From: Gammaproteobacteria bacterium
Lineage (GTDB): Bacteria; Pseudomonadota; Gammaproteobacteria; Burkholderiales; Thiobacillaceae
Direction: 5' to 3'
NCBI GenBank assembly: GCA_018831045.1
Contig: JAHJRA010000044.1
Coordinates: 20,731-84,730, forward strand
DNA: 64,000 nt
Shown here: piece by piece, positions 4,636-31,677 of the stretch
How positions within the stretch are numbered: the stretch's first letter is position 1
Layout of the letters: each line of letters opens with the position of its first letter
Program-made: the position numbers and the translations under genes
Notes under the pieces: model-generated
Told to the model about the DNA's origin: nothing
Seen by the model: only the letters and a program-made list of their open reading frames with translations
Database searches by the model: none

Positions 4636-5094
4636 ATGAAAAGAACCCTCGCTGCGTGCGTCCTGTTTGGCCTGTCGATGCCTGCGCTGGCAACGGATGC
4701 TTATTTCGTCCTGTTTAAAACGCAGGGGGATTTCTCGTTTGTGCGCGATTCGCTGCAAGTCGCGATCGAAGGCAAAGGACTGGTGATCAATCACACCAAC
4801 CAGATTGCCGGGATGCTGGAGCGTACCGGCAAGGATCTGGGCGCGACCCAACAGGTTTTTACGAATGGCGAGCAGTTCGAGTTTTGCAGTGCAACGATTT
4901 CGCGCGCGATGATGGAAGCCGATCCGCATGCGATCACGATGTGCCCATACATCGTTTCGGTGTACACGATTCCCGGCGACGCCAACGTGTACGTTGCTTA
5001 CCGCAAACCCGGCCCTACCCAGAACCCGGCGCTGCAAAAGGCGCTGGATCAGGTTGAAACGCTGTTGACCGAGATCATTGAAGAGGCGCTGTAA
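4636..5094 (+). CDS. Exported DUF302-family protein
   Basis: Signal peptide plus EFCSA...CPY motifs. Confidence 0.8.
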   Translation: MKRTLAACVLFGLSMPALATDAYFVLFKTQGDFSFVRDSLQVAIEGKGLVINHTNQIAGMLERTGKDLGATQQVFTNGEQFEFCSATISRAMMEADPHAITMCPYIVSVYTIPGDANVYVAYRKPGPTQNPALQKALDQVETLLTEIIEEAL

Positions 5095-5118: not shown

Positions 5119-6315
5119 TCAGCCCGGTTTGCCGTCAACCCTGGGGCGCAGCAGCATGGGCGCGTAGAGCGCCGCAAACAGGCCGAATGCCACTATCCAC
5201 AGAAATCCGGCGACCACGGTGCCGGCAAGATAGTCGGCCGGAACCAGCAGCGGCAAAGCGATGCGACTCAAGGCGGCGCAGTTGACCGCCATGAAAGCCA
5301 GTGTCATCAGCGGGGCGGGTTCCAGCATGCGTCCGGTGTGACCGAGCGATACCCGTGCCATCATGCCCAGGGTTAACGCGCCGATGGCACCTGCAGTGAA
5401 GGCATGCAGGGCGCTGCTGGCAGGGACATCCAGCCCGATGGCAGACAGCGTCATCAGGGCGAAGCCGAGCACGATCCAGGCATATCCCATGTGCAAAATC
5501 CACAACAAGGGCACTGACCACAGCTTGCCGGTGTACCAGCCTGCCAGCCGCACCCCGTGCATGACCGCAGCGACAGCGGCGAACAGCGCAGTGACCGGGG
5601 AAACCGGCGCAACCAGTGCCGCGGCCAGTGCACCGAGGGTGGCGACGGGCAGCAGGCGTTCGAGGAGGGGCCAGCGGCGGGCGCGGCTGCCGAGCTTATT
5701 GTCGGTAAAGCTGGGAATCACCCGTCCCCCCATCACCATCATCATGGCCACCACCGCATAGGCTGCAAGATGCAGTCCGGTTCGCGCCGTGCCGGTTGTC
5801 CAGCCCAGTGCATCGGCATGCACCAGCGCATTGGCAAAAGCCAGCGCCAGCAGCATGAGAGGGAAGGGGTAGTTGTGAAATTGCCTGGCCTTGAGGATGG
5901 GCACGGCCAGCACAGCCGCCAAAACTGGTAGAAAAGCCAGGTCGAGCCATGCCACCAGCCCGATCGGCAGACCCGGAATCAGAAATCCCAGTCGTCCCGC
6001 CAGCCACAGCAGGAACAGCGCCGCCAGCGGCGCGCCGGAAGGCATGCGGATGCCGGTCCAGTTCTGTGTGGCAGTAAGCAGGAAACCGGCGATGACCGCC
6101 ACGGCGAAGCCAAACAGCATTTCATGGCCGTGCCAGATGGCAGGCGGCAGTTCGGCGGGAATCAGACTGCCGTGCAGTACCGCCATCCACAAGCCCATCA
6201 GCAATAGGGAAAACAGGCCGGCAGCCAGAAAGAACGGCCGGAAACCCAGAGCAAAGGGTGCCCAGCGCAGAGGGGATGCGTGTTTGAGCGGGTCTTCGAT
6301 GTGCAGCAAGGCCAT
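5119..6315 (-). CDS. nnrS: NnrS family heme-copper membrane protein (NO stress)
   Basis: GFRPFFL, WHGHEMLFGF, GFLLTA.QNWTG, GGRVIPSFT and MMARVSLGHTGR. Confidence 0.93.
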   Translation of the reverse strand: MALLHIEDPLKHASPLRWAPFALGFRPFFLAAGLFSLLLMGLWMAVLHGSLIPAELPPAIWHGHEMLFGFAVAVIAGFLLTATQNWTGIRMPSGAPLAALFLLWLAGRLGFLIPGLPIGLVAWLDLAFLPVLAAVLAVPILKARQFHNYPFPLMLLALAFANALVHADALGWTTGTARTGLHLAAYAVVAMMMVMGGRVIPSFTDNKLGSRARRWPLLERLLPVATLGALAAALVAPVSPVTALFAAVAAVMHGVRLAGWYTGKLWSVPLLWILHMGYAWIVLGFALMTLSAIGLDVPASSALHAFTAGAIGALTLGMMARVSLGHTGRMLEPAPLMTLAFMAVNCAALSRIALPLLVPADYLAGTVVAGFLWIVAFGLFAALYAPMLLRPRVDGKPG

Positions 6316-6356
6316 GGTGTTTTCCGGGGTAAATACGTGAGGTGAGCAGGAAGGGG

Positions 6357-6674
6357 TCAGCCGGTGCTCCAGGCACGTGGCCGCCGCATGCCGGCGATTT
6401 TACAGGCTTGTTTCACGTAGCCGTACGGATAGAGCTGGAACAGTTTCTTCTGCGCTTCCTTGCCCACCCGCTCGGCCAGATGCTTGATGACGAAACGCGC
6501 ATCGGCGATGACCTGATGCTCCTCGTAGTATGCGCGCATGAAATGGATTGTGTCCCAGTGGTCATCGGTGAGCTGGATGTTCTCCTCCTCGGCGAGGGCG
6601 CGCGCCACGTCCTCGTTCCAGTCTGCGGGTTCGACCAGATAGCCTTCGGCATCGCGTTCGGGCAGGGTGCTCAT
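6357..6674 (-). CDS. TusE/DsrC/DsvC family protein lacking the C-terminal Cys (RspA-like)
   Basis: RDAEGYL...WNEDVA, LTDDHW..I.F.R.YY and LYPYGYVKQACKIAG; ends RPRAWSTG. AGGAGA RBS lies before the ATG at 6674. Confidence 0.88.
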   Translation of the reverse strand: MSTLPERDAEGYLVEPADWNEDVARALAEEENIQLTDDHWDTIHFMRAYYEEHQVIADARFVIKHLAERVGKEAQKKLFQLYPYGYVKQACKIAGMRRPRAWSTG

Positions 6675-6722
6675 CGGGATTCTCCTGTGTGTGGGTTCAT
6701 GCATTCTGACAGCCGGGTGGAC

Positions 6723-8270
6723 TCAGGTGCCGCCGCCGTGGAATTCGACGCCGGGCTGGCGTTCCGGCAGGTCGGCTACCAGCAACTCGCGCCGTGCGAT
6801 GGCCAGTGCCTCGACACTGGATGCGTTCAGATACGTTTTGGCATCGGACACAGCCGCCGCCAGCAACTCGGCTGCCAGCGCGTCGGGTTCGCGCCCCAGC
6901 GATCTGGCCAGCGCCCGCAGTTCGGTGCATGGATCCTGCGGCAGGCGGATTTCCAGCGGTTTTCCTTTGCTGGCGGCAAGCGGAACGGCGGCGGCCGCGC
7001 CCGGCTCGGCCAGTACCTGGCTCATCACGCGGGCGATCTGCGAGGCGGCTGACGGCAACGGGGTACCGGGCTGCAAGCGGATCTTGTTGATGAAATATTT
7101 CTCGAAATCGATCTTGGCCTGATGTACCCAACGGCCCTGGCGCATCCAGTTGATATCGCGCAAGGGCACCTGCGGCTCGGACAGATACGCGGCGCCGTTG
7201 TTGCCCATGTCAGAGAGCCACTTGGCGCGCTGTGGTACGTAGCTCACCAGCGGCGCGTCGCTGATCAGGGCGAGGATGTTCTGCACCACGATCTCGCCGG
7301 CTTTCGAAATCGAATACACCGAGTCGGGCGCACCCACCGGCACCGGCGTTTGATCGACCGCCGGTTGCGCCACGCAGGCGCCCAGCGCGAACACGTTGGG
7401 GTAATCGGGGTTGCGCAGGTATTCGTCCACCACCACCAGCCCGCGTTCGTTGACCAGTCCGGTTGCCGTCCGCACCCCGGGCACGCCGCCGAAAGCCGGC
7501 CAGACCATCGAATAGGCATAGGGCAGGGTGTGGGTCTGTTTTTCGTTGCCGGCTGCATCAAGCTCGATGACATGGAGGCTGTCCTTGTCGATGCGAACCA
7601 TGCGCGCATTGCAGATCACGCTGATCTTGGTGTCGACCAAGGCGGCGGTCACCGCACCGCGGCTGGCGCCTTCGCCACCGAGCCCGAGGTGGCCGGGCCA
7701 GGGTTCGGGCGTGACCAGGGTGATGGCCACCCGCTCGCGGATGTTGCGCCGCTTGAGGTCGGCGTCGATCAGGAAGGCATATTCGTAGAGCGGCCCCAGC
7801 ACGCTGGCGCCGGGTGCCGCGCCAATCACGATGGGTCCGGGATGGCGGACAAATTCGCGATAGGCGGCGAGCGCCTGCTCGGCCTGGTCGACGTGGATCA
7901 CCGAGTGGGTGTGCTCGGCCAGACCGGGGATGGCGTCGGTCAGCCCGGCCACCCCGGTGGCGATCAGCAGGGTGTCGTAGAACAGCACATCGCCGTTTTC
8001 CAGATCGACCTGGATGACATCGGGCTGGATGCGTTTGACTGCGCTGTGGATGAACTTGATGCCGCGCGATTCGAGACAGGGTCCGATCGGAAAGGCGATG
8101 TCGGACCGCTCGCGCCAGCCCATGGCAACCCACGGGTTCGACGGCACGAAATGGAAGTAGGGTTTGTCCGACACCACCGTCACTTCGTCGTGCGGGCCCA
8201 GCTTGGCTTTCAGGGCGTAGGCCGCGGTTACGCCCGCGATGCCGGCTCCGAGGATGACAACATGAGTCAT
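6723..8270 (-). CDS. Sulfide:quinone oxidoreductase homolog with catalytic Cys substitutions and a C-terminal extension
   Basis: GAGIAG FAD motif, FVPSNPWV, GRWVH.AK..FEKYF. Positions where SQRs have Cys read SVIHV, GASVLGP and AKWLSDMG. Confidence 0.85.
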   Translation of the reverse strand: MTHVVILGAGIAGVTAAYALKAKLGPHDEVTVVSDKPYFHFVPSNPWVAMGWRERSDIAFPIGPCLESRGIKFIHSAVKRIQPDVIQVDLENGDVLFYDTLLIATGVAGLTDAIPGLAEHTHSVIHVDQAEQALAAYREFVRHPGPIVIGAAPGASVLGPLYEYAFLIDADLKRRNIRERVAITLVTPEPWPGHLGLGGEGASRGAVTAALVDTKISVICNARMVRIDKDSLHVIELDAAGNEKQTHTLPYAYSMVWPAFGGVPGVRTATGLVNERGLVVVDEYLRNPDYPNVFALGACVAQPAVDQTPVPVGAPDSVYSISKAGEIVVQNILALISDAPLVSYVPQRAKWLSDMGNNGAAYLSEPQVPLRDINWMRQGRWVHQAKIDFEKYFINKIRLQPGTPLPSAASQIARVMSQVLAEPGAAAAVPLAASKGKPLEIRLPQDPCTELRALARSLGREPDALAAELLAAAVSDAKTYLNASSVEALAIARRELLVADLPERQPGVEFHGGGT

Positions 8271-8294
8271 TTCAGTCTCCTTGATTGATTAGCA

Positions 8295-8978
8295 TCAGCT
8301 GCGCGGACGCACCAGCTGCCAGGTGCGCACCAGGTAGGTCGTGGCAGCAAAACCGCTCCACACATGCACCAGACGGGTGAACGGGAAAATGAGGAAGATC
8401 GTCATGCCGAGGAACAGGTGGGTCTTGAAGATCCAGCCCGCGCCCGCCAGCAGTTCGACCGCCCCGCCACGGAAGGTGACGATGCGCTGCCCCCATTCGG
8501 CAAGCCGGATCATCATGCTGCCGTCGAGATGCTGCGCCGACAGCGGGATGGTGGCGAGGCCCAGCAGCAGCTGCAGCCACAGTAGCAGGAGGATCACGAT
8601 GTCGCTGGTTTTGGAGGTGGCGCGGATGCGCGGCTCGGTCAGCCGGCGGTGCAACAGCAGGGACAGCCCGATGAAGGCCAGCACGCCCGCAGCGCCGCCA
8701 GAAACCATGGCCAGGATCTGCTTGGCACCAGCGCTGATGAAGGGCTCATACAGAAAGTGCGGCGTCAGCATGCCGACGAAATGGCCGAAGAACAGGAACA
8801 GCACGCCGATGTGGAACAGGTTGCTGCCCAGCCGCAGCTGGCCGCGTCGCAACAGCTGCGACGAATCGCTTTTCCACGTGTACTGCTCGCGGTCGAAGCG
8901 GATCAGGCTGCCAAGGAAAAAAATCGACAGGGCAATGTATGGATAAATGCCGAACAGAAAAGTTTGTGAGTAGGACAT
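8295..8978 (-). CDS. narI: Respiratory nitrate reductase gamma subunit (cytochrome b)
   Basis: TWKSDSSQLL, FHIG..FLFFGH and FPFTRLVH heme-b histidines. Confidence 0.97.
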   Translation of the reverse strand: MSYSQTFLFGIYPYIALSIFFLGSLIRFDREQYTWKSDSSQLLRRGQLRLGSNLFHIGVLFLFFGHFVGMLTPHFLYEPFISAGAKQILAMVSGGAAGVLAFIGLSLLLHRRLTEPRIRATSKTSDIVILLLLWLQLLLGLATIPLSAQHLDGSMMIRLAEWGQRIVTFRGGAVELLAGAGWIFKTHLFLGMTIFLIFPFTRLVHVWSGFAATTYLVRTWQLVRPRS

Positions 8979-9002
8979 GATTTGATCCTCCAGGGGAATG
9001 CG

Positions 9003-9659
9003 TCAGGCAGCCGCCTGACGGTGCGGTTTCGGCATGTGCACCACGGCTATCTGCGGGACGGGGTTCATCAACGGCTCGACGCCATCCGTCGTCGGGCCGA
9101 ATAGCTCCATCGCCTCGTCCATGTCGCGCACCGGTGGCTCGGCCAGTTCCTGCGCTTGAACCGGTGACAGCGTTTCCAGCAACTGGAACGCGGTGGCGTA
9201 GGGGCTGCCATTGGCATCAAGCTTGCGGCCGATGGTGGCGAGCACGTGTACGGCATCGCCGAGCAGGACCAGGGCTTCGTCGGACGGCAGCAGCGACAGG
9301 AATTCAAGGAACAGCGGAACGTAATCCGGCAGCTCGGTGGCGCTGGCGTCGAAGTCGTGCTTCCAGTATTCCTCCAGCAGGTCGATCATCGCCGAGCCGC
9401 GATCGCGTGATTCGCCGTGAATGTGCTCGAACAGATGCAGCGAATGCGAAGGGTTGCGGTCGAAGGTGGCGACGTAGTTTTCCTGTAGCGGAATCAGTTC
9501 GGTTTGCTGGAGTTGCGCAAACAGCGGCGCCAGTTTGGTTTTGGCTTCGCTATTGAAATCAGCCTCGGCTGCCAGCGCATCTTCCAGCTCGGGCAAGGCT
9601 GCCAGCCAGTCGGACTCCGGATAGGTCAGCAGGATGGAAATAACTTTGAAGGTTTTCAT
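9003..9659 (-). CDS. narJ: Nitrate reductase molybdenum cofactor assembly chaperone
   Basis: SLHLFEHIHGESRDRGSAM and ELPDYVPLFLEF; lies between narH and narI. Confidence 0.96.
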   Translation of the reverse strand: MKTFKVISILLTYPESDWLAALPELEDALAAEADFNSEAKTKLAPLFAQLQQTELIPLQENYVATFDRNPSHSLHLFEHIHGESRDRGSAMIDLLEEYWKHDFDASATELPDYVPLFLEFLSLLPSDEALVLLGDAVHVLATIGRKLDANGSPYATAFQLLETLSPVQAQELAEPPVRDMDEAMELFGPTTDGVEPLMNPVPQIAVVHMPKPHRQAAA

Positions 9660-9670
9660 GGCATGGCTCC

Positions 9671-11215
9671 TTATCCGGTTTTCTTCTTGGCGTGCAGCTG
9701 CGACAGGTCGACCGGCACCGAATTCTTGCGGTTGCCGAACAGGCTGTTCTTGGAAACGCCGTCCGAGCAGCCGTTGCCGAAAGTGAAGCCGCAGCTCGAT
9801 TTTTCCTCGAAGGTGTTGAGTGCTTCTTCACGATGACCTGACGGAATGACGAAGCGGTCCTCGTAGTTGGCAATCGCGAGGTAGCGGTACATTTCGTCGG
9901 CCTGCGCGGAGGTCAGGCCCACCTGGTCGAGCGCGGCGGTATTGGGAATGCCTTCCACCGACTTGCCGCGCATGTAGGCGCGCATCGCCAGCAGGCGGTC
10001 GAGCGCGCTGACCACCGGTTGTTCCTTGCCGCCGGTCAGCAGGTTGGCGAGGTAGGTGATCGGGATGCGCAGCGATTTCGTATCGGGAATGATGCCGTTC
10101 ATCCCCATCTTGCCGGACTCGGCCGCGGCCTGGATCGGCGACAACGGCGGCACGTACCACACCATCGGCAGCGTCCGGTATTCCGGGTGCAGAGGGAAGG
10201 CGATCTTCCAGTCGATCGCCATCTTGTAGACCGGCGACTTCACCGCAGCGTCGAGCCAGGCTTCCGGGATGCCTTCGGCGCGCGCGGCGGCAATGACCGC
10301 AGGGTCGGACGGATCGAGGAAGATCTTCAGCTGCGCTTCGTAGAGTTCCTTCTCGTCGGGCACGCTGGCGGCTTCTTCGATGCGGTCGGCGTCATACAGG
10401 ATCACGCCCAGATAGCGGATGCGGCCGACGCAGGATTCCGAGCACACGGTCGGCTGACCCGCCTCGATGCGGGGATAGCAGAAGATGCACTTCTCGGCCT
10501 TGCCGGATTTCCAGTTGAAATAGATCTTCTTGTAGGGGCAGCCGGAGATGCACATGCGCCAGCCGCGGCACTTGTCCTGGTCGACCAGCACGATGCCGTC
10601 TTCCTCGCGCTTGTAGATTGAGCCCGAGGGGCAGGAGGCGACGCAGGTCGGGTTGAGGCAGTGCTCACACAGGCGCGGCAAATACATCAGGAAAGTGTTC
10701 TCGAACGTCGAGTGCATTTCCTTCTGCACGTTGTCGAAGTTCTTGTCGCGGCTGCGCGAGGAGAACTCGCCGCCGAGGTCGTCTTCCCAGTTGGGACCCC
10801 AGTTGATCTTCTCCATCTTCTTGCCGGTGATGGCCGAGATCGGGCGTGCGGTGGGCGGCGTTTCGGACAGCGGCGCCGTCTGCAGATGCTGATAGTCGAA
10901 CGTGAAGGGCTCGTAGTAGTCGTCGATTTCCGGCATGTTGGGATTGCTGAAAATGTTGGCGAGAATTTTCAGCTTGCTGCCCTGGCGCGGCACCAGCTTG
11001 CCGTCGCCCTTGAGCTTCCAGCCGCCGTTCCAGATGTCCTGGTTTTCCCACTGCTTGGGGTAGCCAATACCGGGTTTCGATTCGACGTTGTTGAACCACG
11101 CGTATTCCATGCCTTCGCGCGAGGTCCACACGTTCTTGCACGTAATCGAGCAGGTATGGCAGCCAATGCACTTGTCGAGGTTCAGCACCATCGCAATTTG
11201 GGCACGTACTTTCAT
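9671..11215 (-). CDS. narH: Respiratory nitrate reductase beta subunit
   Basis: MKVRAQIAMVLNLDKCIGCHTCS, CEHCLNPTCVASCP, CRGWRMCISGCP and CIFCYPR. Confidence 0.98.
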   Translation of the reverse strand: MKVRAQIAMVLNLDKCIGCHTCSITCKNVWTSREGMEYAWFNNVESKPGIGYPKQWENQDIWNGGWKLKGDGKLVPRQGSKLKILANIFSNPNMPEIDDYYEPFTFDYQHLQTAPLSETPPTARPISAITGKKMEKINWGPNWEDDLGGEFSSRSRDKNFDNVQKEMHSTFENTFLMYLPRLCEHCLNPTCVASCPSGSIYKREEDGIVLVDQDKCRGWRMCISGCPYKKIYFNWKSGKAEKCIFCYPRIEAGQPTVCSESCVGRIRYLGVILYDADRIEEAASVPDEKELYEAQLKIFLDPSDPAVIAAARAEGIPEAWLDAAVKSPVYKMAIDWKIAFPLHPEYRTLPMVWYVPPLSPIQAAAESGKMGMNGIIPDTKSLRIPITYLANLLTGGKEQPVVSALDRLLAMRAYMRGKSVEGIPNTAALDQVGLTSAQADEMYRYLAIANYEDRFVIPSGHREEALNTFEEKSSCGFTFGNGCSDGVSKNSLFGNRKNSVPVDLSQLHAKKKTG

Positions 11216-11260
11216 GTTTGACTCCTTGCCTGTCAGCAACCGGTGGCTGCTGGCTGTTAT

Positions 11261-11318
11261 AAAAACCCCGCACCGGAGAGAGGTGGCGCGGGTGAGGGCA
11301 GCGGGAGACGCCGCCCTC
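11261..11318 (-). terminator. Two tandem hairpins, the second followed by U5, in the narG-narH spacer
   Basis: On the mRNA: GAGGGCGGCG-tctcc-CGCTGCCCTC, then CCCGC(gcc)ACC-tctctcc-GGTGCGGG-g-TTTTT. Confidence 0.4.
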
Positions 11319-11333
11319 GAAACTTTTGTCTGT

Positions 11334-14300
11334 CTAGCGCTCGACCAGCGGGCCTTCCATCCAGTCCACCTTCTTCATCTTGCGTACGATCACGTATTCG
11401 TCGCGGTTGGAACCCACCGTGCCGTAGTAGTTGAAGCCGTAGGAAAGCTGCGCATAGCCGCCGATCATGTGCGTGGGCTTGGTGATGGTGCGCGTCACCG
11501 AGTTATGGATGCCGCCGCGGAAGCCGCTCACCTCCGCACCCGGCACGTTGATGATCTTTTCCTGCGCGTGGTACATCAGGCACATGCCCTTGGGCACGCG
11601 CTGGCTGACCACGACGCGCGCGGTCAGCGTGCCGTTGACGTTGAACACCTCGACCCAGTCGTTGTCGACCAGCCCGGCCTGCTTCGCCTCGATCTCGGAC
11701 ACCCAGACATGAGGGCCGCCGCGCGACAGCGTCAGCATGCGCAGGTTGTCGGTATAGGTGCTGTGGATGCCCCATTTCTGGTGCGGGGTGATCCAGTTGA
11801 GCACCAGCTCGTGGTTGCCGTTGGGCGTCTTACCCAGCATCGGCGCGATCGTCTTGGTGTCGACCGGCGGCTTGTAGACGCACAGGCCCTCGCCGAAATC
11901 CAGCATCCACTGGTGATCCTGGTAGAACTGCTGGCGGCCGGTCAGGGTACGCCACGGGATCAGCTCGTGGACGTTGGTGTAGCCGGCGTTGTACGACACG
12001 TGTTCCGATTCCAGCCCCGACCAGGTCGGCGACGAAATGATCTTGCGCGGCTGCGCCACGACGTCGCGGAAACGGATCTTGTCGTCCTCGCGCGGGATGG
12101 CCAGGTGCGTGTGGTCGCGGCCCGTGATCTTGGACAGCGCGTCCCAGGCTTTCACCGCTACCTGGCCGTTGGTTTCTGGTGCCAGCATGAGGATGACCTC
12201 GCAGGCGTCGATGGCCGACTCGATCTTCGGCAGGCCCAGGCTGATGCCCGCTTCGGTGACGGTGTAATTCAGTTCGCCCAGCTGCTGAACCTCATCTTCC
12301 GTGTTCCAGCTGATGCCCTTGCCGCCGTTGCCGATTTTGCTCAGCAGCGGCCCCAGCGAAGTGAACTTCTTGTAGGTGTCGCCGTAGTCGCGCGTCACCA
12401 CCGTCATGTTCGGCATGGTCTTGCCCGGGATGGCATCGACCTCGCCTTTTTTCCAGTCGCGCACGGCCATGCTCTGGCCCAGCTCGGACGGTGTGTCGTG
12501 CATCAGCGGCGTCAGCACCAGGTCTTTCTGCGTGCCGAGGTGAGTCGCTGCAAGCTCGGAAAACTTCTTCGCGATGGTCTTGTAGATTTCCCAGTCGGAT
12601 TTTGATTCCCACAGCGGTTGCACGGCTTCGCTCAAGGGATGGATGAAAGGGTGCATGTCCGAGGTATTGAGGTCGTCCTTCTCGTACCAGGTACACGACG
12701 GCAGCACGATGTCGGAATACAGACAGGTGGTGGACATGCGGAAATCGAGTGTCACCAACAGGTCGAGCTTGCCTTCGGCGCCCTTGTCATGCCACACCAC
12801 TTCCTTCGGCTTGGCCTCGCCGAGCTCACCCAGATCAGGCCCCAGCACCGCGTTCTGGGTGCCGAGCAGGTACTTGAGGAAATATTCGTGGCCCTTGCCG
12901 GACGAACCCAGGATGTTGGAGCGCCAGACGAACAGGTTGCGCGGGAAGTTCTTCGGGTTGTCCGGGTCTTCGCAGGAGAACTTGAGCGCGCCGCTCTGGA
13001 TCTGCTCGACCGCGTACTTGACCGGGTCGATGCCGGCGGCCTCGGCGGCCTGGGTGATCTCCAGCGGATTGGTTTCCAGTTGCGGCGCGGACGGCAGCCA
13101 GCCCATGCGCTCGGCACGCACGTTGAAATCGATCAGCCGGTAATCGCCCAGATCCTTGTTCGCGGTGGGCGACAGGATCTCGGACGCCGCCAGCTTCTCG
13201 TGGCGCCACTGGCTGGTGTGGGCATAGAAGTAGGACGTACCGTTCATCTGCCGCGATGGCCGGTGCCAGTCGAGACCGAACGCCAGCGGCGCCCAGCCGG
13301 TCTGTGGCCGCAGTTTTTCCTGCCCCACGTAATGCGCCCAGCCGCCGCCCGACTGGCCGATGCAGCCACACATCATCAGCATGTTGATGATGCCGCGGTA
13401 GATCATGTCGTTGTGGTACCAGTGGTTGAGCGCCGCGCCGAGGATGACCATCGACTTGCCGTGGGTCTTGTCGGCGTTGTCGGCGAACTCGCGCGCCACC
13501 GTGATGATGTCAGCACGCGGCACGCCGCAGTGCTTCTCGGCCCAGGCCGGGGTGTAGGGTACGTCGTCGTCGTAACTGGTGGGCAGGTTCGGCCCGCCAA
13601 GGCCGCGGTCGACGCCGTAGTTGGCCATGGTCAGGTCATAGACGGTGGCGATGCGCACGTCGCGACCACCGATGCTGATGACTTTGACCGGCAGATTGCG
13701 GCTGAGCAGGTCGGTGTGGTCGCCGCCGAAGTAGGGCAATGCCACTTCCACAACTTCGTCGTGATTGTCCAACAGGGTGAGCTGCGGCTTGACGTCCTTG
13801 CCCGAATAGCCGTCGCGCATTTCGAGGTTCCATGCACCGGACTGGCCCCAGCGGAAACCGATCGAGCCATTCGGCGCGACCAGGTAGCCGGTGTTTTCGT
13901 CGTACACCACCGTCTTCCATTCGGGATTGTTGTCCTGCCCCATGTTGCCGGTGAGATCCGAGGCACGCAGGTAGCGGTCGGCGATCAGCTTGCCTTCATG
14001 CTCCTTCAGCATCACCAGCATCGGCATGTCGTTGTACTGGCGGCAGTAGGTGTCGAAATACTCGCTGCGGTTCTTGTTGTGGAACTCGTTGAGGATGACG
14101 TGTCCCATCGCCAGTGCCAGCGCGGCATCGGTGCCCTGCCTGGGGGCGAGCCAGATATCGCCGAACTTGACCATCTCGCCATAATCCGACGACACCGCCA
14201 CCGTCTTGGTCCCCTTGTAGCGCACCTCGGTGTAGAAGTGGGCATCGGGGGTGCGCGTCTGCGGCACGTTGGAGCCCCATACCATCAGATAGGTCGAGTT

Positions 14301-15032
14301 GTACCAGTCGGCCGATTCCGGCACGTCGGTCTGCTCGCCCCACACCTGCGGGCTGGCCGGCGGCAGGTCGCAGTACCAGTCGTAGAACGACAAGGGGGTG
14401 CCGCCGATCAACGACAGATAACGCGAGCCGGCTGCGTAGCTCACCATCGACATGGCCGGAATCGGCGAGAAACCGGCGACGCGATCGGGACCGAATTCCT
14501 TGATGGTGAAGACGTTGGCGGCGGCGATCATTTCCGTCACCTCGTCCCACTTGGCGCGCACGAAACCGCCCAGGCCGCGCACCGACTTGTAGCGTCTGGC
14601 CTTTTCGGGCTTCTGGCTGATCGATTTCCAGGCTTCCACCGGGTCCATGGTCTTCCTTGCCTCACGCCACATCTCCATCAGGCGGCCACGGATCAGCGGA
14701 TATTTCACGCGCTGCGCCGAATACACGTACCAGGAATAGCTGGCGCCGCGCGGACAGCCGCGCGGTTCATGGTTGGGCAGATCGGCGCGGGTGCGCGGAT
14801 AGTCGGTCTGCTGGATTTCCCAGGTGATGAGGCCGTTCTTGACGAAGATTTTCCAGCTGCACGAGCCGGTGCAGTTCACCCCGTGAGTCGAACGCACCAC
14901 CTTGTCTTGCTGCCAGCGGCTGCGGTAGGCGTTTTCCCAGCTGCGGTCTTCTTTAACGACGGCACCATGGCCATCTGAAAATTCGGCGACGGTCTTCTTG
15001 AAGAAGGTCAATCTATCGAGAAAGTGACTCAT
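11334..15032 (-). CDS. narG: Respiratory nitrate reductase alpha subunit
   Basis: MSHFLDRL, STHGVNCTGSCSW (FS0), HEPRGCPRGAS, SFYDWYCDLP and TPHQKWGIHSTY. Confidence 0.99.
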   Translation of the reverse strand: MSHFLDRLTFFKKTVAEFSDGHGAVVKEDRSWENAYRSRWQQDKVVRSTHGVNCTGSCSWKIFVKNGLITWEIQQTDYPRTRADLPNHEPRGCPRGASYSWYVYSAQRVKYPLIRGRLMEMWREARKTMDPVEAWKSISQKPEKARRYKSVRGLGGFVRAKWDEVTEMIAAANVFTIKEFGPDRVAGFSPIPAMSMVSYAAGSRYLSLIGGTPLSFYDWYCDLPPASPQVWGEQTDVPESADWYNSTYLMVWGSNVPQTRTPDAHFYTEVRYKGTKTVAVSSDYGEMVKFGDIWLAPRQGTDAALALAMGHVILNEFHNKNRSEYFDTYCRQYNDMPMLVMLKEHEGKLIADRYLRASDLTGNMGQDNNPEWKTVVYDENTGYLVAPNGSIGFRWGQSGAWNLEMRDGYSGKDVKPQLTLLDNHDEVVEVALPYFGGDHTDLLSRNLPVKVISIGGRDVRIATVYDLTMANYGVDRGLGGPNLPTSYDDDVPYTPAWAEKHCGVPRADIITVAREFADNADKTHGKSMVILGAALNHWYHNDMIYRGIINMLMMCGCIGQSGGGWAHYVGQEKLRPQTGWAPLAFGLDWHRPSRQMNGTSYFYAHTSQWRHEKLAASEILSPTANKDLGDYRLIDFNVRAERMGWLPSAPQLETNPLEITQAAEAAGIDPVKYAVEQIQSGALKFSCEDPDNPKNFPRNLFVWRSNILGSSGKGHEYFLKYLLGTQNAVLGPDLGELGEAKPKEVVWHDKGAEGKLDLLVTLDFRMSTTCLYSDIVLPSCTWYEKDDLNTSDMHPFIHPLSEAVQPLWESKSDWEIYKTIAKKFSELAATHLGTQKDLVLTPLMHDTPSELGQSMAVRDWKKGEVDAIPGKTMPNMTVVTRDYGDTYKKFTSLGPLLSKIGNGGKGISWNTEDEVQQLGELNYTVTEAGISLGLPKIESAIDACEVILMLAPETNGQVAVKAWDALSKITGRDHTHLAIPREDDKIRFRDVVAQPRKIISSPTWSGLESEHVSYNAGYTNVHELIPWRTLTGRQQFYQDHQWMLDFGEGLCVYKPPVDTKTIAPMLGKTPNGNHELVLNWITPHQKWGIHSTYTDNLRMLTLSRGGPHVWVSEIEAKQAGLVDNDWVEVFNVNGTLTARVVVSQRVPKGMCLMYHAQEKIINVPGAEVSGFRGGIHNSVTRTITKPTHMIGGYAQLSYGFNYYGTVGSNRDEYVIVRKMKKVDWMEGPLVER

Positions 15033-15056
15033 TGTTTCGCTCCTTTGTCGCTCATG

Positions 15057-15132
15057 GTGAGCGGTTAGCAGTGAGCAGTGAGCGGTGGGGGGGAGTGGTT
15101 TTACCGTTTCCCGTTCACCGCTTACCGCTCAC
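15057..15132. repeat. Inverted arrays of 7-bp repeats forming a long hairpin between narK2 and narG
   Basis: gtgagcg-gttagca-gtgagca-gtgagcg at 15057-15084 faces ccgtttc-ccgttca-ccgctta-ccgctca at 15104-15131. Confidence 0.8.
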
Positions 15133-16739
15133 GGATTTTTAATCTCCGAACCCTTGCGCAGGTAGAACCACCAGTTCAGTACCAGACACACGGCGTAGAA
15201 AATGGCGAAGCCATACATCGCGTACTGCGGCGAACCGGCCTTGATCTGCTCGCCGATCACCACGGGGGCGATGAAGGCGCCGTAGGCGGCTACCGCCGAG
15301 GTCCAGCCCAGCACCGGCCCAGCCTGCACGCGGTCGAAAATGACGCCGACGGTGCGGAAGGTGGAGCCGTTGCCGATGCCGGTGGCGGCAAACAGCACCA
15401 CGAAGGTGACGATGAACTGGGTGAAGTACATCTCGGGCGTGGCCGACTGGTAGGCCTGCAGCATGATCCAGCCGGCGTAGGCAGAAGCCGCGACCATGAT
15501 GGCCGAGATGATCTGGGTGACGATGGAACCGCCGACCTTGTCCGAAATCCAGCCGCCCACCGGCCGGATCAGTGCGCCGACGAAGGGGCCGATCCAGGCG
15601 TATTGCAGCGCGGAAGGTGCATTGGGGTTCTTGATGTGCTCCCACATCCCGGTAGCGCCATTGAGGGTGTGGGTGTCGCCGAAGATCACCGTGATCGACA
15701 GTGGCAGCGCCATCGAAAAGCCGATGAAGGAACCGAAGGTGACGAGGTAAAGCGCCGTCATCGACCAAGTGTGCTTGTTGCTGAATATGGCGAACTGCTT
15801 GCTGATGTTTTCCTTCATCGCGCCGAAGGCCGCCAGCTTCATGATGATCAGTGTGCTGACGATGATGAGCGGCATCGCAAGCCACATGTTGAGGACGCCG
15901 AGGCCGGTGGGGGCGGGCAGGTAGAGATAGAGGCCGCCGATGGCGGGGACGAAGGCGAGGGTGTAGAGCCAGGTGACCTTGATGAAGGCCGCCAGGGTAT
16001 TGCCTGCATCAGGCGAGACCGGCCGCAGGTTGTTCATGCCGAACCAGGCAATGATGGCCAGCGGCACCAGCGATAGTACCCAGGCGAAACCGGCGTTCTG
16101 GATGAAGGTGGGGGTGCCGGCGAGAATCTTGCCGAAGATCCAGCCGCTGTCTTTCACCAGCGTCATCGGCTCGCCGCCCAATGTGCCGAACAGGCCGATT
16201 GTCATCACCAGCGGAATGATGATCTGCATGGTGGTGACGCCGAAGTTGCCCAAACCTGCATTGAGTCCCAGTGCGGTGCCCTGCAGGCGCTTGGGGAAAA
16301 AGGTGCTGATGTTGCTCATCGAGCTGGCGAAGTTGCCGCCGCCCACGCCTGACCACAGCGCCATCAACTGGAACGACCACAAGGGCCAGTCCTGATGCTG
16401 CAGCACGATGCCGGTGCCGATGGCAGGCGCCAGCAGCATTGCGGTGGTGAGGAAAATGACGTTGCGCCCACCCGCCAGGCGGATGAAGAAAGACGACGGA
16501 ATCCGCATCGTCGCGCCGGCCAGGCCGGAAATCGCCGTCAGGGTGAACAGTTCTTCCTTGCTGAAAGGAAATCCCAGGTTGGACATCTGCACCGCGATGA
16601 TTCCCCACATCAGCCACACGGCAAAACCGCACAGCAGCGCCGGCACCGAAATCCACAGATTGCGGTAGGCAATTTTCTTGCCGGTCGATTCCCAGAAGGT
16701 CGGGTCCTCCGGATTCCATTCCTTGATGTTGGTAGACAT
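15129..16739 (-). CDS. narK2: Nitrate/nitrite antiporter, NarK2 type (MFS)
   Basis: W.PEDPTFW..G..IA.RNLWIS, GGGNFASSMSNIS.FFP and GIGNGSTF. Confidence 0.9.
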   Translation of the reverse strand: MSTNIKEWNPEDPTFWESTGKKIAYRNLWISVPALLCGFAVWLMWGIIAVQMSNLGFPFSKEELFTLTAISGLAGATMRIPSSFFIRLAGGRNVIFLTTAMLLAPAIGTGIVLQHQDWPLWSFQLMALWSGVGGGNFASSMSNISTFFPKRLQGTALGLNAGLGNFGVTTMQIIIPLVMTIGLFGTLGGEPMTLVKDSGWIFGKILAGTPTFIQNAGFAWVLSLVPLAIIAWFGMNNLRPVSPDAGNTLAAFIKVTWLYTLAFVPAIGGLYLYLPAPTGLGVLNMWLAMPLIIVSTLIIMKLAAFGAMKENISKQFAIFSNKHTWSMTALYLVTFGSFIGFSMALPLSITVIFGDTHTLNGATGMWEHIKNPNAPSALQYAWIGPFVGALIRPVGGWISDKVGGSIVTQIISAIMVAASAYAGWIMLQAYQSATPEMYFTQFIVTFVVLFAATGIGNGSTFRTVGVIFDRVQAGPVLGWTSAVAAYGAFIAPVVIGEQIKAGSPQYAMYGFAIFYAVCLVLNWWFYLRKGSEIKNP

Positions 16740-16797
16740 GCTGACTTCCCCTTGTTAATTGACCAACGGAGCCGGACATCGCCCGCTCCGGGTTTGA

Positions 16798-18063
16798 CTA
16801 CTCCATCCGGTCTGCAAGCTGGACCCGCTTCAACTCCCGTGCCGCATCCATCGGACGCACTTCCGCCCAGTACATCCACATCAATGACACCCACACCACG
16901 CCGAACATCAGCATGAAGGCCGATGAGCGGATGCCGGTCAGGTCGACCAGCGCGCCGAACAGGATCGGCATCAGGAAACCGCCGAGGCCGCCGGCCAGAC
17001 CGACCACGCCGGACACCACGCCGATGTTGTCGGGGTAGTCGTCGGAGATGTACTTGAAGACCGAAGCCTTGCCGATGGCGAACACCACGCCGAGGCTGAA
17101 CAGGATGAGGGTGAACAGCGTTGCGTTCAGGCCGAAGTGGAAGGTGAACGGGCCGTTGACGGTCTGGATGGTGATGTCGCTCTGCGGGTAGGACAGGAAG
17201 AACAGGCAGATCAGCGCAATCCACAACACCCACCACGTCATGGTGTGGGCGCCGAACTTGTCGGAGAAATAGCCGCCGACCGCCCGCAGCAACCCACCTG
17301 GAATGCTGAAGGCAGCCGCCAGCAGCGCGGCGGTCTGGAGGTCGAAGCCGTATTCGCTGATGTAGTACTTGGTCATCCACAACGCCAGCGCCACATAGCC
17401 GCCGAACACGATCGAGTAATACTGGCTGTAGCGCCACACCCTGGGATCCTTGAAGGCGGCAAGCTGCTCGCGCAGAGTGACGGACTTGCCCACCGTGTGC
17501 CCGGGATCGCTGTAGGTGAAGAACCAGAACACGATGGCGGTCACCCCCATCAGCACCGCGTACACCTTCGGCACCATGGTCCAGCCGTAGCCGACCACGA
17601 TGATGGGCGCCAGCAGCTTGGTGAGTGCCGCGCCCGTGTTGCCGGCGCCGAAGATGCCCATTGCCAGGCCCTGCCGCTGCCTGGGAAACCAGCGCGCGCA
17701 GTAGGCAATTCCCACCGTGAACGAGCCGCCCGCCATGCCGACGAACAGTCCGGTCACCAGGAAGTGCCAGTACTGCGTCGCCCACGAAATCATCCAGATC
17801 GGGATGACCGTCGCCAGCATCAGGATGAAGAAGACGATGCGGCCGCCGAATTTATCGGTCCACATGCCCAGCGGCACGCGGATCAGCGAGCCGGTCAGCA
17901 CCGGGGTGGCGATCAGGATGCCGAATTCGGTTTCATTCAATCCCAGTTGTTGTTTGATGGGCACGCCGATCACGGCGAACATCATCCAGATCATGAAACA
18001 CACCGTGAATGCCAGTGTGCTCATGATGACGACCGACCATGCCTTGTAATGCTGCGTTGCCAT
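16798..18063 (-). CDS. narK1: Nitrate/proton symporter, NarK1 type (MFS)
   Basis: STLAFTVCF.IWMMF, PVLTGSLIRVPLG and GKASVFKYI.D.YP. Confidence 0.9.
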   Translation of the reverse strand: MATQHYKAWSVVIMSTLAFTVCFMIWMMFAVIGVPIKQQLGLNETEFGILIATPVLTGSLIRVPLGMWTDKFGGRIVFFILMLATVIPIWMISWATQYWHFLVTGLFVGMAGGSFTVGIAYCARWFPRQRQGLAMGIFGAGNTGAALTKLLAPIIVVGYGWTMVPKVYAVLMGVTAIVFWFFTYSDPGHTVGKSVTLREQLAAFKDPRVWRYSQYYSIVFGGYVALALWMTKYYISEYGFDLQTAALLAAAFSIPGGLLRAVGGYFSDKFGAHTMTWWVLWIALICLFFLSYPQSDITIQTVNGPFTFHFGLNATLFTLILFSLGVVFAIGKASVFKYISDDYPDNIGVVSGVVGLAGGLGGFLMPILFGALVDLTGIRSSAFMLMFGVVWVSLMWMYWAEVRPMDAARELKRVQLADRME

Positions 18064-18173: not shown

Positions 18174-18189
18174 TACCTCTGAATGGGTA
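18174..18189. promoter_or_regulatory. NarL 7-2-7 binding site between divergent narK1 and cytochrome c5
   Basis: TACCTCT-GA-ATGGGTA fits TACYYMT-N2-AKRRGTA at every specified position. narXL are in the window. Confidence 0.8.
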
Positions 18190-29074: not shown

Positions 29075-31021
29075 TTGATTGCATGGAGAAAACGCGTGCG
29101 CCATTTATTGGGGAATAAACTGCAGAACTCGCTGCTTTTGCGGCTGGGGGGCATGTTTTTTGCCATTACCGTGCTGGCAGTGGCCAGCATGTTCACCTCC
29201 TGGATGGTGGCGGAAACCACCCAGGGCAGCGGCCAGGCGATCAACGTGGCGGGCAGTCTGCGGATGCAGAGCTGGCGCATGGCCTCGATCCATCAACGTT
29301 TGGTGCAAACCGGCAAACCCGCATACCAGGCAAGCCTGCAACAGGCCATCGGCCGGTTTGAACATGACCTCAATGGGGCGCCCATTCTGGCGGTTCTGCC
29401 GGACGATGAAACCGCACCGTTGAAGCAGATTTACCGGCAGGTAGTCAGCCAGTGGCATACGCAAATCAAACCCGGACTAGCCGATCCGGCAGCCGCGTCT
29501 GCTGCAATGGATCCGTCGGTGCTGGATCAAATCCCTGCATTCGTCGCCCGCATCAACGATCTGGTCAAACAGATCGAGAATGCCGCTGAAGCAAAAATCC
29601 TGGTCATGCGCGTCATCCTCGGCGCGGCGGTCATTGCCACGCTGCTGGTGGTGATTCTGTCCATCTATCTGGTCAACCAGATTCTGGTTCACCCGCTGCG
29701 CGACCTGCTGGGCCTGGCTGATCGCATCGGCCAGGGTGACCTGGCGGCACGCACCGATCTGGCAGGCGAAGACGAGATCGGGCGGTTGGGGCAGGCTTTC
29801 AACCATATGGCGGAAGACCTCTCCCGGCTGTATCAGAATCTGGAAGCGCGGGTGGCGGAAAAAACGGCAGAACTGACCATCGCCAACCGTTCGCTGGAGC
29901 TGCTCTACCATTCGATCGCGCGGCTGTACAACGGCCCGGTGGCGCCGGACACCTACGCCATTCTGCTGAAGGATCTGGAAAACGTGCTGGGCGTCGGCCA
30001 CGGGCTGGCCTGTCTGGTCGAGGCCGGCAACACGACGCAGGCCCGGATCATCGCCAGCACGCTGCGTCCGGACAGTGGCGATGTCGATATGTGCGGGCTG
30101 ATGAGTTGCGCCGAATGCATGGCGCATCAGACCCTGACCGTACACCGGCTGCAGAATGACCGGCGTGTACTGTCGCTACCGCTCAGGGACACCGAACAGC
30201 ATTACGGCGTGCTGCAACTGGAGATGCCGCCCGGCAAGGAACTGGCGCCCTGGCAGACCCAGTTGCTGGATGCCCTGTCGCGCCATATCGGCATCGCCAT
30301 CGGCACTGCGCGGCGCGCCGAACAAAGCCGCCGCGTGTCCTTGCTGGAAGAGCGTGCCGCGTTGGCGCGCGAACTGCATGACTCGCTGGCGCAGTCGCTG
30401 GCCTACATGAAAATCCAGGTCAGCCGCCTGAAGCCGTTGCTGCCCGCGCCCGACCCCGTCAAGACCCAATCTGGCGCCGGCAACGAGGCGGGCGCCGTGC
30501 TGGCCGAGCTGCGCGAAGGGCTCAACAGTGCCTATCGCCAGCTGCGCGAACTGCTCACCACCTTCCGCCTGCGCATCGAGGGCACCGGGCTGGCGGCCGC
30601 GCTGGAAAAAACAGTGTCTGAATTTTCCAGTCGGGGCGCGATTCCCATCACGCTGGAGGCGCACCTGGCGGGCTGCACGCTTAGTCCAAACGAGGAAATC
30701 CATGCCCTGCAAATCGTGCGCGAGGCGCTGTCCAATGTATTGAACCATGCGCGGGCCAGCCAGGCAGAAGTCAGCGTGCTGTGCAACAGCGACGGCTCGG
30801 TATCGGCCACCGTCACCGATGACGGCATCGGCCTTCAGCAAAGTGCAGGCGTGCATCATTACGGCATGACTATCATGGACGAGCGGGCGAAAAACCTGGG
30901 CGGGCAACTGAGCGTCGAGAACTTGCCCGCATTGGGCACCCGTGTGACCCTGCATTTCATGCCGGCCAGCCACCGCGAGCCCATCATTCCCATTCACCCT
31001 GTACACCCCAACAACGCATGA
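29075..31021 (+). CDS. narX: Nitrate/nitrite sensor histidine kinase
   Basis: P-box AINVAGSLRMQSWR, HAMP, ARELHDSLAQSL and DDGIG. The TTG start is uncertain. Confidence 0.93.
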   Translation: MIAWRKRVRHLLGNKLQNSLLLRLGGMFFAITVLAVASMFTSWMVAETTQGSGQAINVAGSLRMQSWRMASIHQRLVQTGKPAYQASLQQAIGRFEHDLNGAPILAVLPDDETAPLKQIYRQVVSQWHTQIKPGLADPAAASAAMDPSVLDQIPAFVARINDLVKQIENAAEAKILVMRVILGAAVIATLLVVILSIYLVNQILVHPLRDLLGLADRIGQGDLAARTDLAGEDEIGRLGQAFNHMAEDLSRLYQNLEARVAEKTAELTIANRSLELLYHSIARLYNGPVAPDTYAILLKDLENVLGVGHGLACLVEAGNTTQARIIASTLRPDSGDVDMCGLMSCAECMAHQTLTVHRLQNDRRVLSLPLRDTEQHYGVLQLEMPPGKELAPWQTQLLDALSRHIGIAIGTARRAEQSRRVSLLEERAALARELHDSLAQSLAYMKIQVSRLKPLLPAPDPVKTQSGAGNEAGAVLAELREGLNSAYRQLRELLTTFRLRIEGTGLAAALEKTVSEFSSRGAIPITLEAHLAGCTLSPNEEIHALQIVREALSNVLNHARASQAEVSVLCNSDGSVSATVTDDGIGLQQSAGVHHYGMTIMDERAKNLGGQLSVENLPALGTRVTLHFMPASHREPIIPIHPVHPNNA

Positions 31022-31677
31022 ATCCAGCCGAACCCCAAACCCTCCTGATCGTCGATGACCACCCGTTGTTTCGCAAAGGGGTGATCCAGCTGATCCTGGC
31101 CGCGCCCGAATTCCGTCTGGTGGGTGAAGCCGCCAGCGGCAAGGAAGGCATGGCGCTCGCCCGCAGCCTGCACCCCGACATGATCCTGCTCGACCTCAAC
31201 ATGAAGGACATGAACGGGATCGAGGTACTGAAAAAACTGAAGGACGACGGGCTCGATGCGCGCATCATCATGCTGACCGTGTCCGATCATGTGGACGACC
31301 TGATGGCCGCCCTGCAGGCCGGTGCCGATGGCTATCTGCTGAAGGACATGGAGCCGGAGGACCTGATGCCGCAACTGGTCGAGGCGGCGCACGGCAAAAT
31401 CACCATCAGCGCGAGCCTCACGCAATTGCTGGTGACTTCACTGCGCGAGAAAAGCCGCCCCTTGAGCCCGGCAGAAGCCGGATTGACCGACCAGGAAAAC
31501 CGCATCCTCGAACACCTGATCGACGGCAAGAGCAACAAGCTGATTGCCCGCGACATGGACATTGCCGAGGGTACGGTGAAAGTGCATGTCAAACACCTGC
31601 TGAAGAAACTCAATCTGCGCTCGCGCGTGGAAGCTGCGGTGTGGGCGGATCGCTGCCGCCGCCAGAACAAAACATGA
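31018..31677 (+). CDS. narL: NarL response regulator
   Basis: REC domain (DDHPLFRKG, LLDLNM) and LuxR HTH (SNKLIAR..IAEGTVKVHVK..LKKL). Confidence 0.93.
   Translation: MNPAEPQTLLIVDDHPLFRKGVIQLILAAPEFRLVGEAASGKEGMALARSLHPDMILLDLNMKDMNGIEVLKKLKDDGLDARIIMLTVSDHVDDLMAALQAGADGYLLKDMEPEDLMPQLVEAAHGKITISASLTQLLVTSLREKSRPLSPAEAGLTDQENRILEHLIDGKSNKLIARDMDIAEGTVKVHVKHLLKKLNLRSRVEAAVWADRCRRQNKT

Follow-up and report, generated by a model that had tools for sequence, protein, structure and literature searches.

The subject of this study is a nitrate reductase (nar) gene cluster in a 64-kb stretch of DNA from a Thiobacillaceae bacterium (contig JAHJRA010000044.1), which is called the window below. The cluster consists of nine open reading frames (ORFs), narK1-narK2-narGHJI-pSQR-dsrC-like-nnrS, all on the minus strand and running from position 18063 to position 5119. 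We use the name pSQR for the 515-aa homologue of sulfide:quinone oxidoreductase (SQR), a member of the pyridine-nucleotide-disulfide-oxidoreductase family, that is encoded after narI. Gene products were assigned with Pfam and NCBIfam profiles, and every product of the cluster received an assignment. As shown in Table 1, all four subunits of NarGHJI exceeded the NCBIfam equivalog cut-offs, and their genes stand in canonical order. The spacers between the genes are 24-97 nt long, with 24 nt between narI and pSQR, 48 nt between pSQR and the dsrC-like gene, and 41 nt between the dsrC-like gene and nnrS. No terminator-like hairpin was found between narI and nnrS in the window. The start of the dsrC-like gene was set at ATG 6674, which has an AGGAGA ribosome-binding site (RBS); the alternative upstream ATG at 6704 has none.

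A first-pass annotation of this DNA had described nine co-oriented genes with short gaps downstream of a perfect NarL site, and both points were confirmed. The perfect NarL 7-2-7 motif, TACCCATTCAGAGGTA, has one match in the window, with none expected from shuffled sequences. Two other Thiobacillus contigs (L095 and L102) have a near-identical palindrome, CTACCnnnTTnGGAGGTAG, at the corresponding place, and the alignment of nar promoters contained this palindrome together with two short conserved blocks.

Table 1. Coordinates of the nar-pSQR cluster, of the parts of pSQR and of the NarL-related features in the window
Feature	Position	Strand	Description
narK1	16798..18063	-	NarK-family MFS nitrate/nitrite transporter; Pfam MFS_1; NCBIfam TIGR00886 below its cut-off
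narK2	15129..16739	-	NarK/NarU-like transporter; Pfam/NCBIfam
narG	11334..15032	-	Nitrate reductase alpha subunit; TIGR01580, 2188 bits (cut-off 1084)
narH	9671..11239	-	Nitrate reductase beta subunit; TIGR01660, 944 bits (cut-off 524)
narJ	9003..9659	-	Assembly chaperone; TIGR00684, 112 bits (cut-off 59)
narI	8295..8978	-	Gamma subunit, di-haem b, quinol-oxidising; TIGR00351, 289 bits (cut-off 106)
pSQR, whole gene	6723..8270	-	515 aa, SQR family
pSQR residues 1-400	7071..8270	-	SQR-fold flavoprotein domain; phmmer and Foldseek
pSQR residues 436-499	6774..6965	-	Ribbon-helix-helix-like module and third helix; AlphaFold2 model and Foldseek
pSQR C-terminal tail ...PGVEFHGGGT	6726..6758	-	F510 and G513 invariant in the family
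dsrC-like	6357..6674	-	105 aa, DsrC/TusE family; Pfam DsrC, 115 bits
nnrS	5119..6315	-	Haem/copper membrane protein; Pfam NnrS PF05940, 388.5 bits (cut-off 28), residues 21-392
NarL-type 7-2-7 inverted heptamer pair TACCCAT-TC-AGAGGTA	18174..18189	.	111 nt upstream of narK1
narX-narL two-component system	29075..31677	+	narX 29075-31021, narL 31018-31677

pSQR lacks the three catalytic cysteines of SQR

Residues 1-404 of pSQR aligned end to end with the SQR of A. ferrooxidans at about 50% identity (phmmer against 3kpk/3t2y, E 1e-103), and the AlphaFold model superposed on the SQR structures 3sxi and 3t31 (Foldseek E 2e-45). In this alignment, C128, C160, and C356 of the A. ferrooxidans enzyme correspond to I125, V157, and W351 of pSQR, and His132 corresponds to Q129. 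In SQR, Cys160 and Cys356 form the redox-active pair on the re-face of the flavin. The residues were then compared in an alignment of 40 diverse long-form members of the pSQR family, down to 40% identity. Cys was found at the three catalytic positions in 0/40 members. The former Cys128, Cys160, and Cys356 positions were occupied by I/V/L/M/T, V/I/L/T, and W/R, respectively. The FAD motif residues G8, G10, G13, D35, and G297 were invariant or nearly so, with G8, G10, and G13 of the N-terminal GxGxxG motif invariant, and the flavin-environment residues E163, H194, and K386 (39/40) and F389 (37/40) were kept.

Compared with type I SQR (A. ferrooxidans 3T31/3KPK; A. aeolicus 3HYV), pSQR shares the two-Rossmann fold, the FAD motifs, and the equivalents of E166, H198, K391, and F394. 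It differs in that the three cysteines are replaced by I, V/I, and W, His132 by Q/E/D, and F357 by L/I/V. The last amphipathic membrane helix of SQR is replaced by a linker and a domain of about 90 aa, and the pSQR gene sits inside the nar operon. Among the quinone-pocket equivalents, whose roles we take to be those in the published SQR structure, F41, P43, Y323, and F394 are kept in pSQR, and G322, F357, and N353 are changed. pSQR has neither a signal peptide nor an NAD(P)H motif. The second-Rossmann glycine motif is variable in the family (RVPTIGP in one clade); therefore, NAD(P)H is not the donor, and an identity as an NDH-2-like NADH dehydrogenase was rejected for the same reason.

The hydrophobic fillings at the former cysteine positions (I, V/I, and W) suggest that the sulfide chamber of pSQR has been closed. 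As judged from its sequence, pSQR should be unable to oxidise sulfide by the known Cys chemistry. Since the FAD motifs and the C-terminal residues F510 and G513 stay invariant across the 40 members, pSQR appears to be a flavoprotein under purifying selection and not a decaying gene. The first-pass annotation had claimed the loss of the sulfur-chemistry Cys in both sulfur-enzyme homologues of the cluster. This holds for pSQR with all three residues, but the DsrC-like protein has lost the penultimate CysA only and has kept CysB.

Cys299 was present in 40/40 members; its position presumably matches the G-D-C of NDH-2 enzymes. We considered it as a relocated catalytic Cys and rejected this, as catalytic SQR relatives with C160 and C356, such as P0125, also have Cys there. 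Three SQR homologues of normal length (P0127, P0130, and P0131) keep Cys160 and have Tyr or Trp at the Cys356 position, and may represent a stage between catalytic SQR and the family without these cysteines. One further homologue of 403 aa (P0122) is cysteine-less and has no C-terminal domain.

The additional domain of pSQR (residues ~436-515) has no counterpart in SQR and follows a linker modelled at low confidence. When this domain was modelled alone with 33 homologues using AlphaFold2 (AF2), the pLDDT was 84. The model contained an extended strand segment (PLEIRLP), helices at residues 445-457 and 462-478, and a third helix at residues 483-499. The top Foldseek matches were all ribbon-helix-helix (RHH) proteins, namely TacA2, CdbA, the PutA DNA-binding domain, StnY, CopG, Arc, and AmrZ. 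Among the 33 domain homologues, single faint Pfam matches were obtained to TacA1 (E 0.008), RHH_10 (0.08), and RHH_1 (1.8). From the model, RHH is a reasonable fold assignment for this domain, whereas membership in an RHH family is not demonstrated. On the surface of the domain, conservation is highest in the tail, V-x-F-[EH]-G-G-[AG]-[PT], which had low AF2 confidence. The -GG- of the tail was also considered as a ThiS/MoaD-like sulfur-carrier end; this was rejected, because the domain is helical and not a beta-grasp.

The pattern of the domain, an RHH-like core with a helix and then a conserved tail, resembles that of the RHH antitoxins TacA/AtaR/KacA, which dimerise through the RHH and hold a partner with the C-terminal tail. 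TacA2 was the best Foldseek match over the whole C-terminal domain, and the TacA1 match in Pfam came from one family member. The difference is that pSQR has no toxin partner and that its domain is fused to a flavoprotein of 400 aa; the match statistics are also weak.

Conservation and transcription of the nar-pSQR unit

A scan of species-representative genomes yielded 80 pSQR loci, all from Thiobacillus or Thiobacillaceae. pSQR was located directly after narI on the same strand in every one of these loci with upstream DNA except L059, and the same adjacency was found in L095-L103. The dsrC-like gene came next after pSQR in most of the 80 loci. nnrS usually followed the dsrC-like gene and was sometimes kilobases off, swapped, or missing. 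The arrangement of the window, with an sqr-dsrC pair beside nar, was also present in T. denitrificans strains RG (L007) and DSM 12475 (L044).

Distant pSQR clades with 40-49% identity were recovered from metagenomes, and relatives of one of them, the P0123 clade, are named Steroidobacteraceae. Among the distant loci with enough upstream DNA, 4/5 showed the order narGHJI-(ppiC)-pSQR (L082, L088, L091, and L093). Neither dsrC nor nnrS was present after pSQR in L082 and L091, the two distant loci read downstream. Because in two distant clades pSQR stands behind narI or narI-ppiC with neither dsrC nor nnrS, the comparison of loci identifies Nar-pSQR, and not the pSQR-dsrC-nnrS trio, as the conserved association. 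The first-pass annotation had treated the nine genes as one system. The narI-pSQR part of this neighbourhood is widely kept, but the nine genes are not one indivisible unit.

In the narI-pSQR spacer, the RBS block AAGGAGACTGAAATG was almost invariant, and no promoter-like element was seen in the alignment of these spacers. REP-like GC-rich hairpins of 40-200 nt, the sole additional content of the longer spacers, were observed between narI and pSQR in the spacers of L011, L017, L021, L026, L030, L035, L038, L044, L049, L065, and others. These inserts (CCCCTCTCCCCAACCCTCTCCC...GGGGCGAGGGGGCGAAGGC) are sometimes in tandem and leave the RBS block intact; the window contains none.

No RNA run matched the strain of the window exactly, and the transcription evidence comes from its relatives. 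Metatranscriptome contigs from relatives about 95% identical included one that spans nnrS, the dsrC-like gene, and the 3' end of pSQR, and also covered the region from the pSQR start to the narI stop. As RNA contigs can contain DNA, these are weak evidence. Stranded raw reads from a pure culture of T. denitrificans (run X27) were mapped to the DSM 12475 locus (L044). The sense coverage continued without a break from narI (11-44x) across the junction (39x) into pSQR (about 20x). Another T. denitrificans study supplied three runs whose RNA contigs bridged both narI-pSQR and pSQR-dsrC-like at roughly equal depth. A 16.8-kb RNA contig of uniform depth (X4) looked like DNA carry-over and was not used. 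These results indicate that pSQR behaves as part of the nar transcript.

The dsrC-like gene and nnrS

The DsrC-like protein matched Pfam PF04358 with 115 bits and TIGR03342 with 99.5 bits (cut-off 53.5). Against A. vinosum DsrC (1yx3), the fold domain and CysB in its ACKIAG context are kept, but the AGLPKPTG-C motif with its penultimate CysA is missing. The protein of the window ends in ...ACKIAGMRRPRAWSTG. In a census across the loci, the C-terminus PYGYVKQACKIAGM[KR]RPRAWSTG (...ACKIAGM[KR]RPRAWSTG) was near-invariant in Thiobacillaceae, and unlike the arm of DsrC, TusE, or RspA it is basic and contains Trp. The score against the TusE equivalog NF008562 was 77.6 bits (cut-off 191) and there is no C-terminal Cys, the residue with which TusE takes part in the tRNA-thiolation relay, which places the protein outside TusE; having CysB and no penultimate CysA, it is not a bona fide DsrC either. 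The match to the fold and the absence of CysA fit the class of DsrC-family proteins without CysA ('RspA-like'), which we take to be those with a DsrC fold in which the catalytic C-terminal Cys is missing. At three loci, the DsrC-like protein encoded next to pSQR has no Cys at all; therefore, thiol chemistry is probably not the point of this protein. A homologue search returned only Thiobacillus-type sequences with at least 78% identity and is silent on distant members. A further difference from DsrC, TusE, and RspA is the linkage to nar, nnrS, and an NsrR-type operator and not to dsr or tus genes. A bona fide DsrC has two conserved C-terminal cysteines, CysB and the penultimate CysA within the AGLPKPTG-C motif. 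This motif is defined in PMC8477390, where the RspA family name also appears.

The NsrR consensus is gATGyAT-N5-ATrCATc, and nnrS is listed among the regulons that respond to nitric oxide (NO) or nitrite (Rodionov et al., PMC1274295). The pSQR-dsrC-like spacer of T. denitrificans holds GATGTATCATGGATGCTTC, which fits this consensus. In 1.2 Mb of loci, 22 NsrR-like sites were found with up to 2 mismatches, and 18/22 lie 57-80 nt upstream of a dsrC-like start. The palindrome thus precedes the dsrC-like gene in at least 18 species loci. By length, the pSQR-dsrC-like spacers form two classes: most of the long ones (66-132 nt) carry the palindrome, and the short ones (35-64 nt) lack it.

In run X27, a sharp 5' boundary supported by 145 molecules was found ahead of the dsrC-like gene at L044:10606, with the operator-like palindrome 14-32 nt upstream of it. 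The depth over the dsrC-like gene was 2460-2990x, which is more than 100-fold that over pSQR. The 3' ends clustered at L044:10991, and nnrS was covered at 90-320x. Two GC-rich hairpins follow the dsrC-like gene at L044 10944-11040; the second (CCGGGCCGGGCATGCCCGGCCC) is followed by a T-run, which agrees with the clustering of 3' ends at 10991 and with the fall in depth. The 41-nt spacer in the window contains no such hairpin. These results indicate that the dsrC-like gene can be expressed independently and far more strongly than pSQR.

The first-pass annotation had linked the last three genes to nar transcription and had offered sulfur-gene expression or NO protection as their output. Linkage to nar is upheld for pSQR by synteny and RNA continuity with narI, but not for the dsrC-like gene of T. 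denitrificans, with its separate 5' end and its much larger amount of RNA. Of the two outputs, NO protection is the better-supported half for the dsrC-like/nnrS pair, given the own 5' end and the NsrR-type palindrome in relatives. Coupling to sulfur-oxidation gene expression found no support, as nothing links these genes to sulfur-gene regulation.

Two other loci carry the dsrC-like gene in a different setting. In L100 (11661-21551), norC/norB come after pSQR and the dsrC-like gene, and then nirS, a TonB-dependent receptor, a truncated globin, and a second dsrC-like and nnrS pair. In L103 (11661-21569), the dsrC-like gene is followed by norC/norB, nirS, a second nirS-like gene, and the receptor, and the string ends in nnrS. 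Several nar genes of L103 are split in fragments, possibly by long-read frameshifts.

Proposed roles and genomic surroundings

On balance, we favour an explanation with two separable parts, a nar operon that ends in a re-tooled pSQR and a nitrosative-stress module of dsrC-like and nnrS packed behind it. In this explanation, narK1K2GHJI would be driven from the NarL-type promoter with pSQR as the conserved last member. We infer that pSQR binds FAD and quinone and tentatively place it at the cytoplasmic face of the membrane, where its flavin would equilibrate with the quinone pool. The RHH-like module and the tail would pass the redox state of the flavin to DNA or to a partner protein and so tune Nar-dependent respiration. 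The dsrC-like gene and nnrS would respond to NO, in many Thiobacillus from their own promoter under an NsrR-type operator. In the window, transcription of the two genes most likely runs on from nar and pSQR, because the NsrR-type operator is absent there.

The model for such a sensing or signalling role is PutA, a flavoenzyme fused to an RHH DNA-binding domain, in which the flavin redox state switches the protein between DNA and the membrane. pSQR would share with PutA the combination of a membrane-peripheral, quinone-linked flavoprotein and an RHH-like module in one chain, and the DNA-binding domain of PutA (2JXG) is among the top structural matches of its C-terminal domain. The two differ in several respects. 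The flavin domain of PutA is a PRODH barrel, unrelated to the SQR fold of pSQR, and the RHH is N-terminal in PutA and C-terminal in pSQR. DNA binding has been shown for PutA, whereas the pSQR domain is acidic, and pSQR, unlike PutA, has no known substrate. By this analogy, a PutA-like role coupled to the quinone pool is a tentative possibility for pSQR. The more specific version is rather unlikely. In that version, pSQR would be a one-component redox sensor whose flavin reads the quinone pool near NarGHI and switches the RHH-like module between a membrane-bound and a DNA- or partner-bound state, so that nitrate respiration would feed back directly on gene expression. Separately, the NsrR (nitric oxide) regulon would include the CysA-less DsrC-like protein as a strongly expressed and so far overlooked member.

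Several observations weigh against the favoured explanation. The quinone pocket is only partly conserved (F357 to L/I/V, N353 to R), the last amphipathic helix of SQR (Y411, K417) has no counterpart in pSQR, and the Cys356 loop was modelled at low confidence. The RHH matches in Foldseek had probabilities of 0.7-0.96 and target TM scores of 0.64-0.81 but E values of at least 0.2, which is to be expected of such a small domain. Pfam and PDB sequence searches with the C-terminal domain of the window gave no significant match. The RHH that the first-pass annotation had placed on pSQR stands as a resemblance in fold, but is not detectable by sequence. RHH domains have a beta-alpha-alpha fold, dimerise through the strand, and recognise specific DNA by polar or basic residues of that strand. 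Nearly all members of the pSQR family have a C-terminal domain with a net negative charge (mean -4.5), and its strand residues differ between clades. No candidate RHH operator and no obvious repeat set were found in the narI-pSQR spacers or the nar promoter alignment. The same annotation had pSQR plausibly binding DNA or partners. DNA binding by the RHH-like domain is doubtful, because of the acidic charge, the variable strand residues, and the conservation centred on the tail; the conserved tail suggests partner docking. Finally, L059 (pSQR at 9008-10561) and L085 keep pSQR without adjacent nar. In L085, the last ~26 codons of a PpiC-type gene remain ahead of pSQR (3122-3200), and since this 3' remnant persists, a secondary loss of nar is suggested there.

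The second part of the explanation meets similar points. No NsrR-like site with up to 2 mismatches was found anywhere in the window, which belongs to the short-spacer class, and the dsrC-like gene and nnrS may here simply be driven by nar. About 36% of the X27 reads over the dsrC-like gene carry C>G at L044:10757. These reads probably come by cross-mapping from a second, near-identical, and also highly expressed dsrC-like paralogue. The 5' boundary at L044:10606 could also have arisen by RNA processing.

About as likely as the sensing role is that pSQR is a working enzyme dedicated to Nar with an undefined donor. It would be a quinone reductase or quinol oxidase whose remodelled re-face receives a protein partner or a substrate other than sulfide, and the RHH-like domain would only dimerise or dock. 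The nitrate-specific Nrc NADH dehydrogenase of Thermus thermophilus is an analogue for such an enzyme. The strict conservation of the FAD motifs and the flavin-side residues, the SQR/NDH-2 fold, the obligate position next to narI in three clades, and the conserved C-terminal tail, which suggests docking of a partner, are all consistent with catalysis. However, no conserved polar or redox residue stands in place of the cysteines, the pocket being filled by I, V/I, and W. pSQR also has no NAD(P)H motif and no conserved partner but Nar, the dsrC-like gene being absent from the distant clades. We regard this alternative as possible on a tentative footing.

Less probable is the proposal of the first-pass annotation, in which NarL drives all nine genes as a single operon and the last three proteins form a signalling arm from Nar/quinone status to sulfur-oxidation genes. 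The compact spacing in the window, with neither an internal terminator nor an NsrR site, would agree with a single operon. The same applies to the metatranscriptome contig of a 95%-identical relative that spans pSQR-dsrC-like-nnrS and to the T. denitrificans study in which RNA contigs had similar depth from nar to nnrS. DsrC-family proteins have also been proposed as regulators. However, the trio is not a conserved unit, and in many relatives the dsrC-like gene has an independent 5' end, its own expression level, and an NO-type operator. No sulfur-metabolism target is indicated, and the three loci with a Cys-free DsrC-like protein beside pSQR also argue against this proposal, which we consider improbable. 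That pSQR is an inert relic, a duplicated sqr riding in the operon, is hardly credible: all catalytic cysteines are lost and T. denitrificans carries several sqr copies, but at least three clades, with identities as low as 40%, conserve the protein over its full length. Its FAD motifs do not vary, the extra domain also contains invariant residues, the RBS is conserved, and the gene is transcribed.

Beller et al. (2006) reportedly found sqr and dsrC beside nar in T. denitrificans, in agreement with the synteny in strains RG and DSM 12475. They reportedly saw higher expression of two similar copies of sqr and dsrC under denitrifying conditions and are said to have treated the genes as sulfide:quinone oxidoreductase and as dsrC of sulfur oxidation. 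In the searchable literature, nothing was found on the Cys loss of pSQR, the RHH-like domain, the nar operons outside Thiobacillus, or the NsrR-type site, and searches on Tbd1407-1409, on SQR with RHH, and on nar with sqr and dsrC gave nothing relevant. The SQR family, flavoprotein-RHH fusions, and DsrC-like proteins are already known kinds, of which the present proteins are variants.

Genes of the pSQR family are annotated as 'sulfide:quinone oxidoreductase' in Thiobacillus and in related genomes and metagenomes. They are thereby counted as sulfide-oxidation capacity, yet their products should be unable to use the known sulfide chemistry and the genes belong to the nar operon. The annotation and modelling of sulfur-driven denitrifiers would change accordingly. 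Environmental denitrifiers with pSQR are abundant, and this conserved but uncharacterised partner flavoprotein of NarGHI is a concrete and testable gap in the knowledge of an otherwise well-studied enzyme. If pSQR does sense the redox state of quinone, the PutA principle would have a second representative, built on another enzyme fold. For the DsrC family, the predicted NsrR control of the DsrC-like protein and its very high expression suggest that some members have a role related to NO and outside sulfur metabolism.

The narX-narL two-component system, which likely reads the 7-2-7 site, encodes a NarX with PilJ, HAMP, GAF, HisKA_3, and HATPase domains and a NarL of 219 aa, in which a receiver and a LuxR-type helix-turn-helix (HTH) were read from the sequence. 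A nos cluster (nosZRDFYL) is located between narX-narL and nar on the minus strand, with nosZ at 28609-26675 followed by nosR, nosD, nosF, nosY, and nosL to 19074. Since narX-narL and the nos cluster lie near nar, the whole region is a denitrification island of a Thiobacillus species. A small gene for a c-type cytochrome (18730-18314, minus strand) has no Pfam match.

Downstream of nnrS, a convergent DUF302 ORF with a signal-like N-terminus (4579-5094, plus strand) closes the gene string. It overlaps by about 115 nt an ORF similar to LysR-HTH/ModE-N (4693-4193, minus strand). A DUF302 gene also adjoins pSQR in the nar-less locus L059 (5085-5588), where the tail of pSQR is altered to VAFLGGET. 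Further downstream, positions 45-4182 of the window encode a phosphoketolase and a glycogen phosphorylase. The distant locus L091 likewise has a phosphoketolase near pSQR, along with a transaldolase/PGI fusion (12154-17507).

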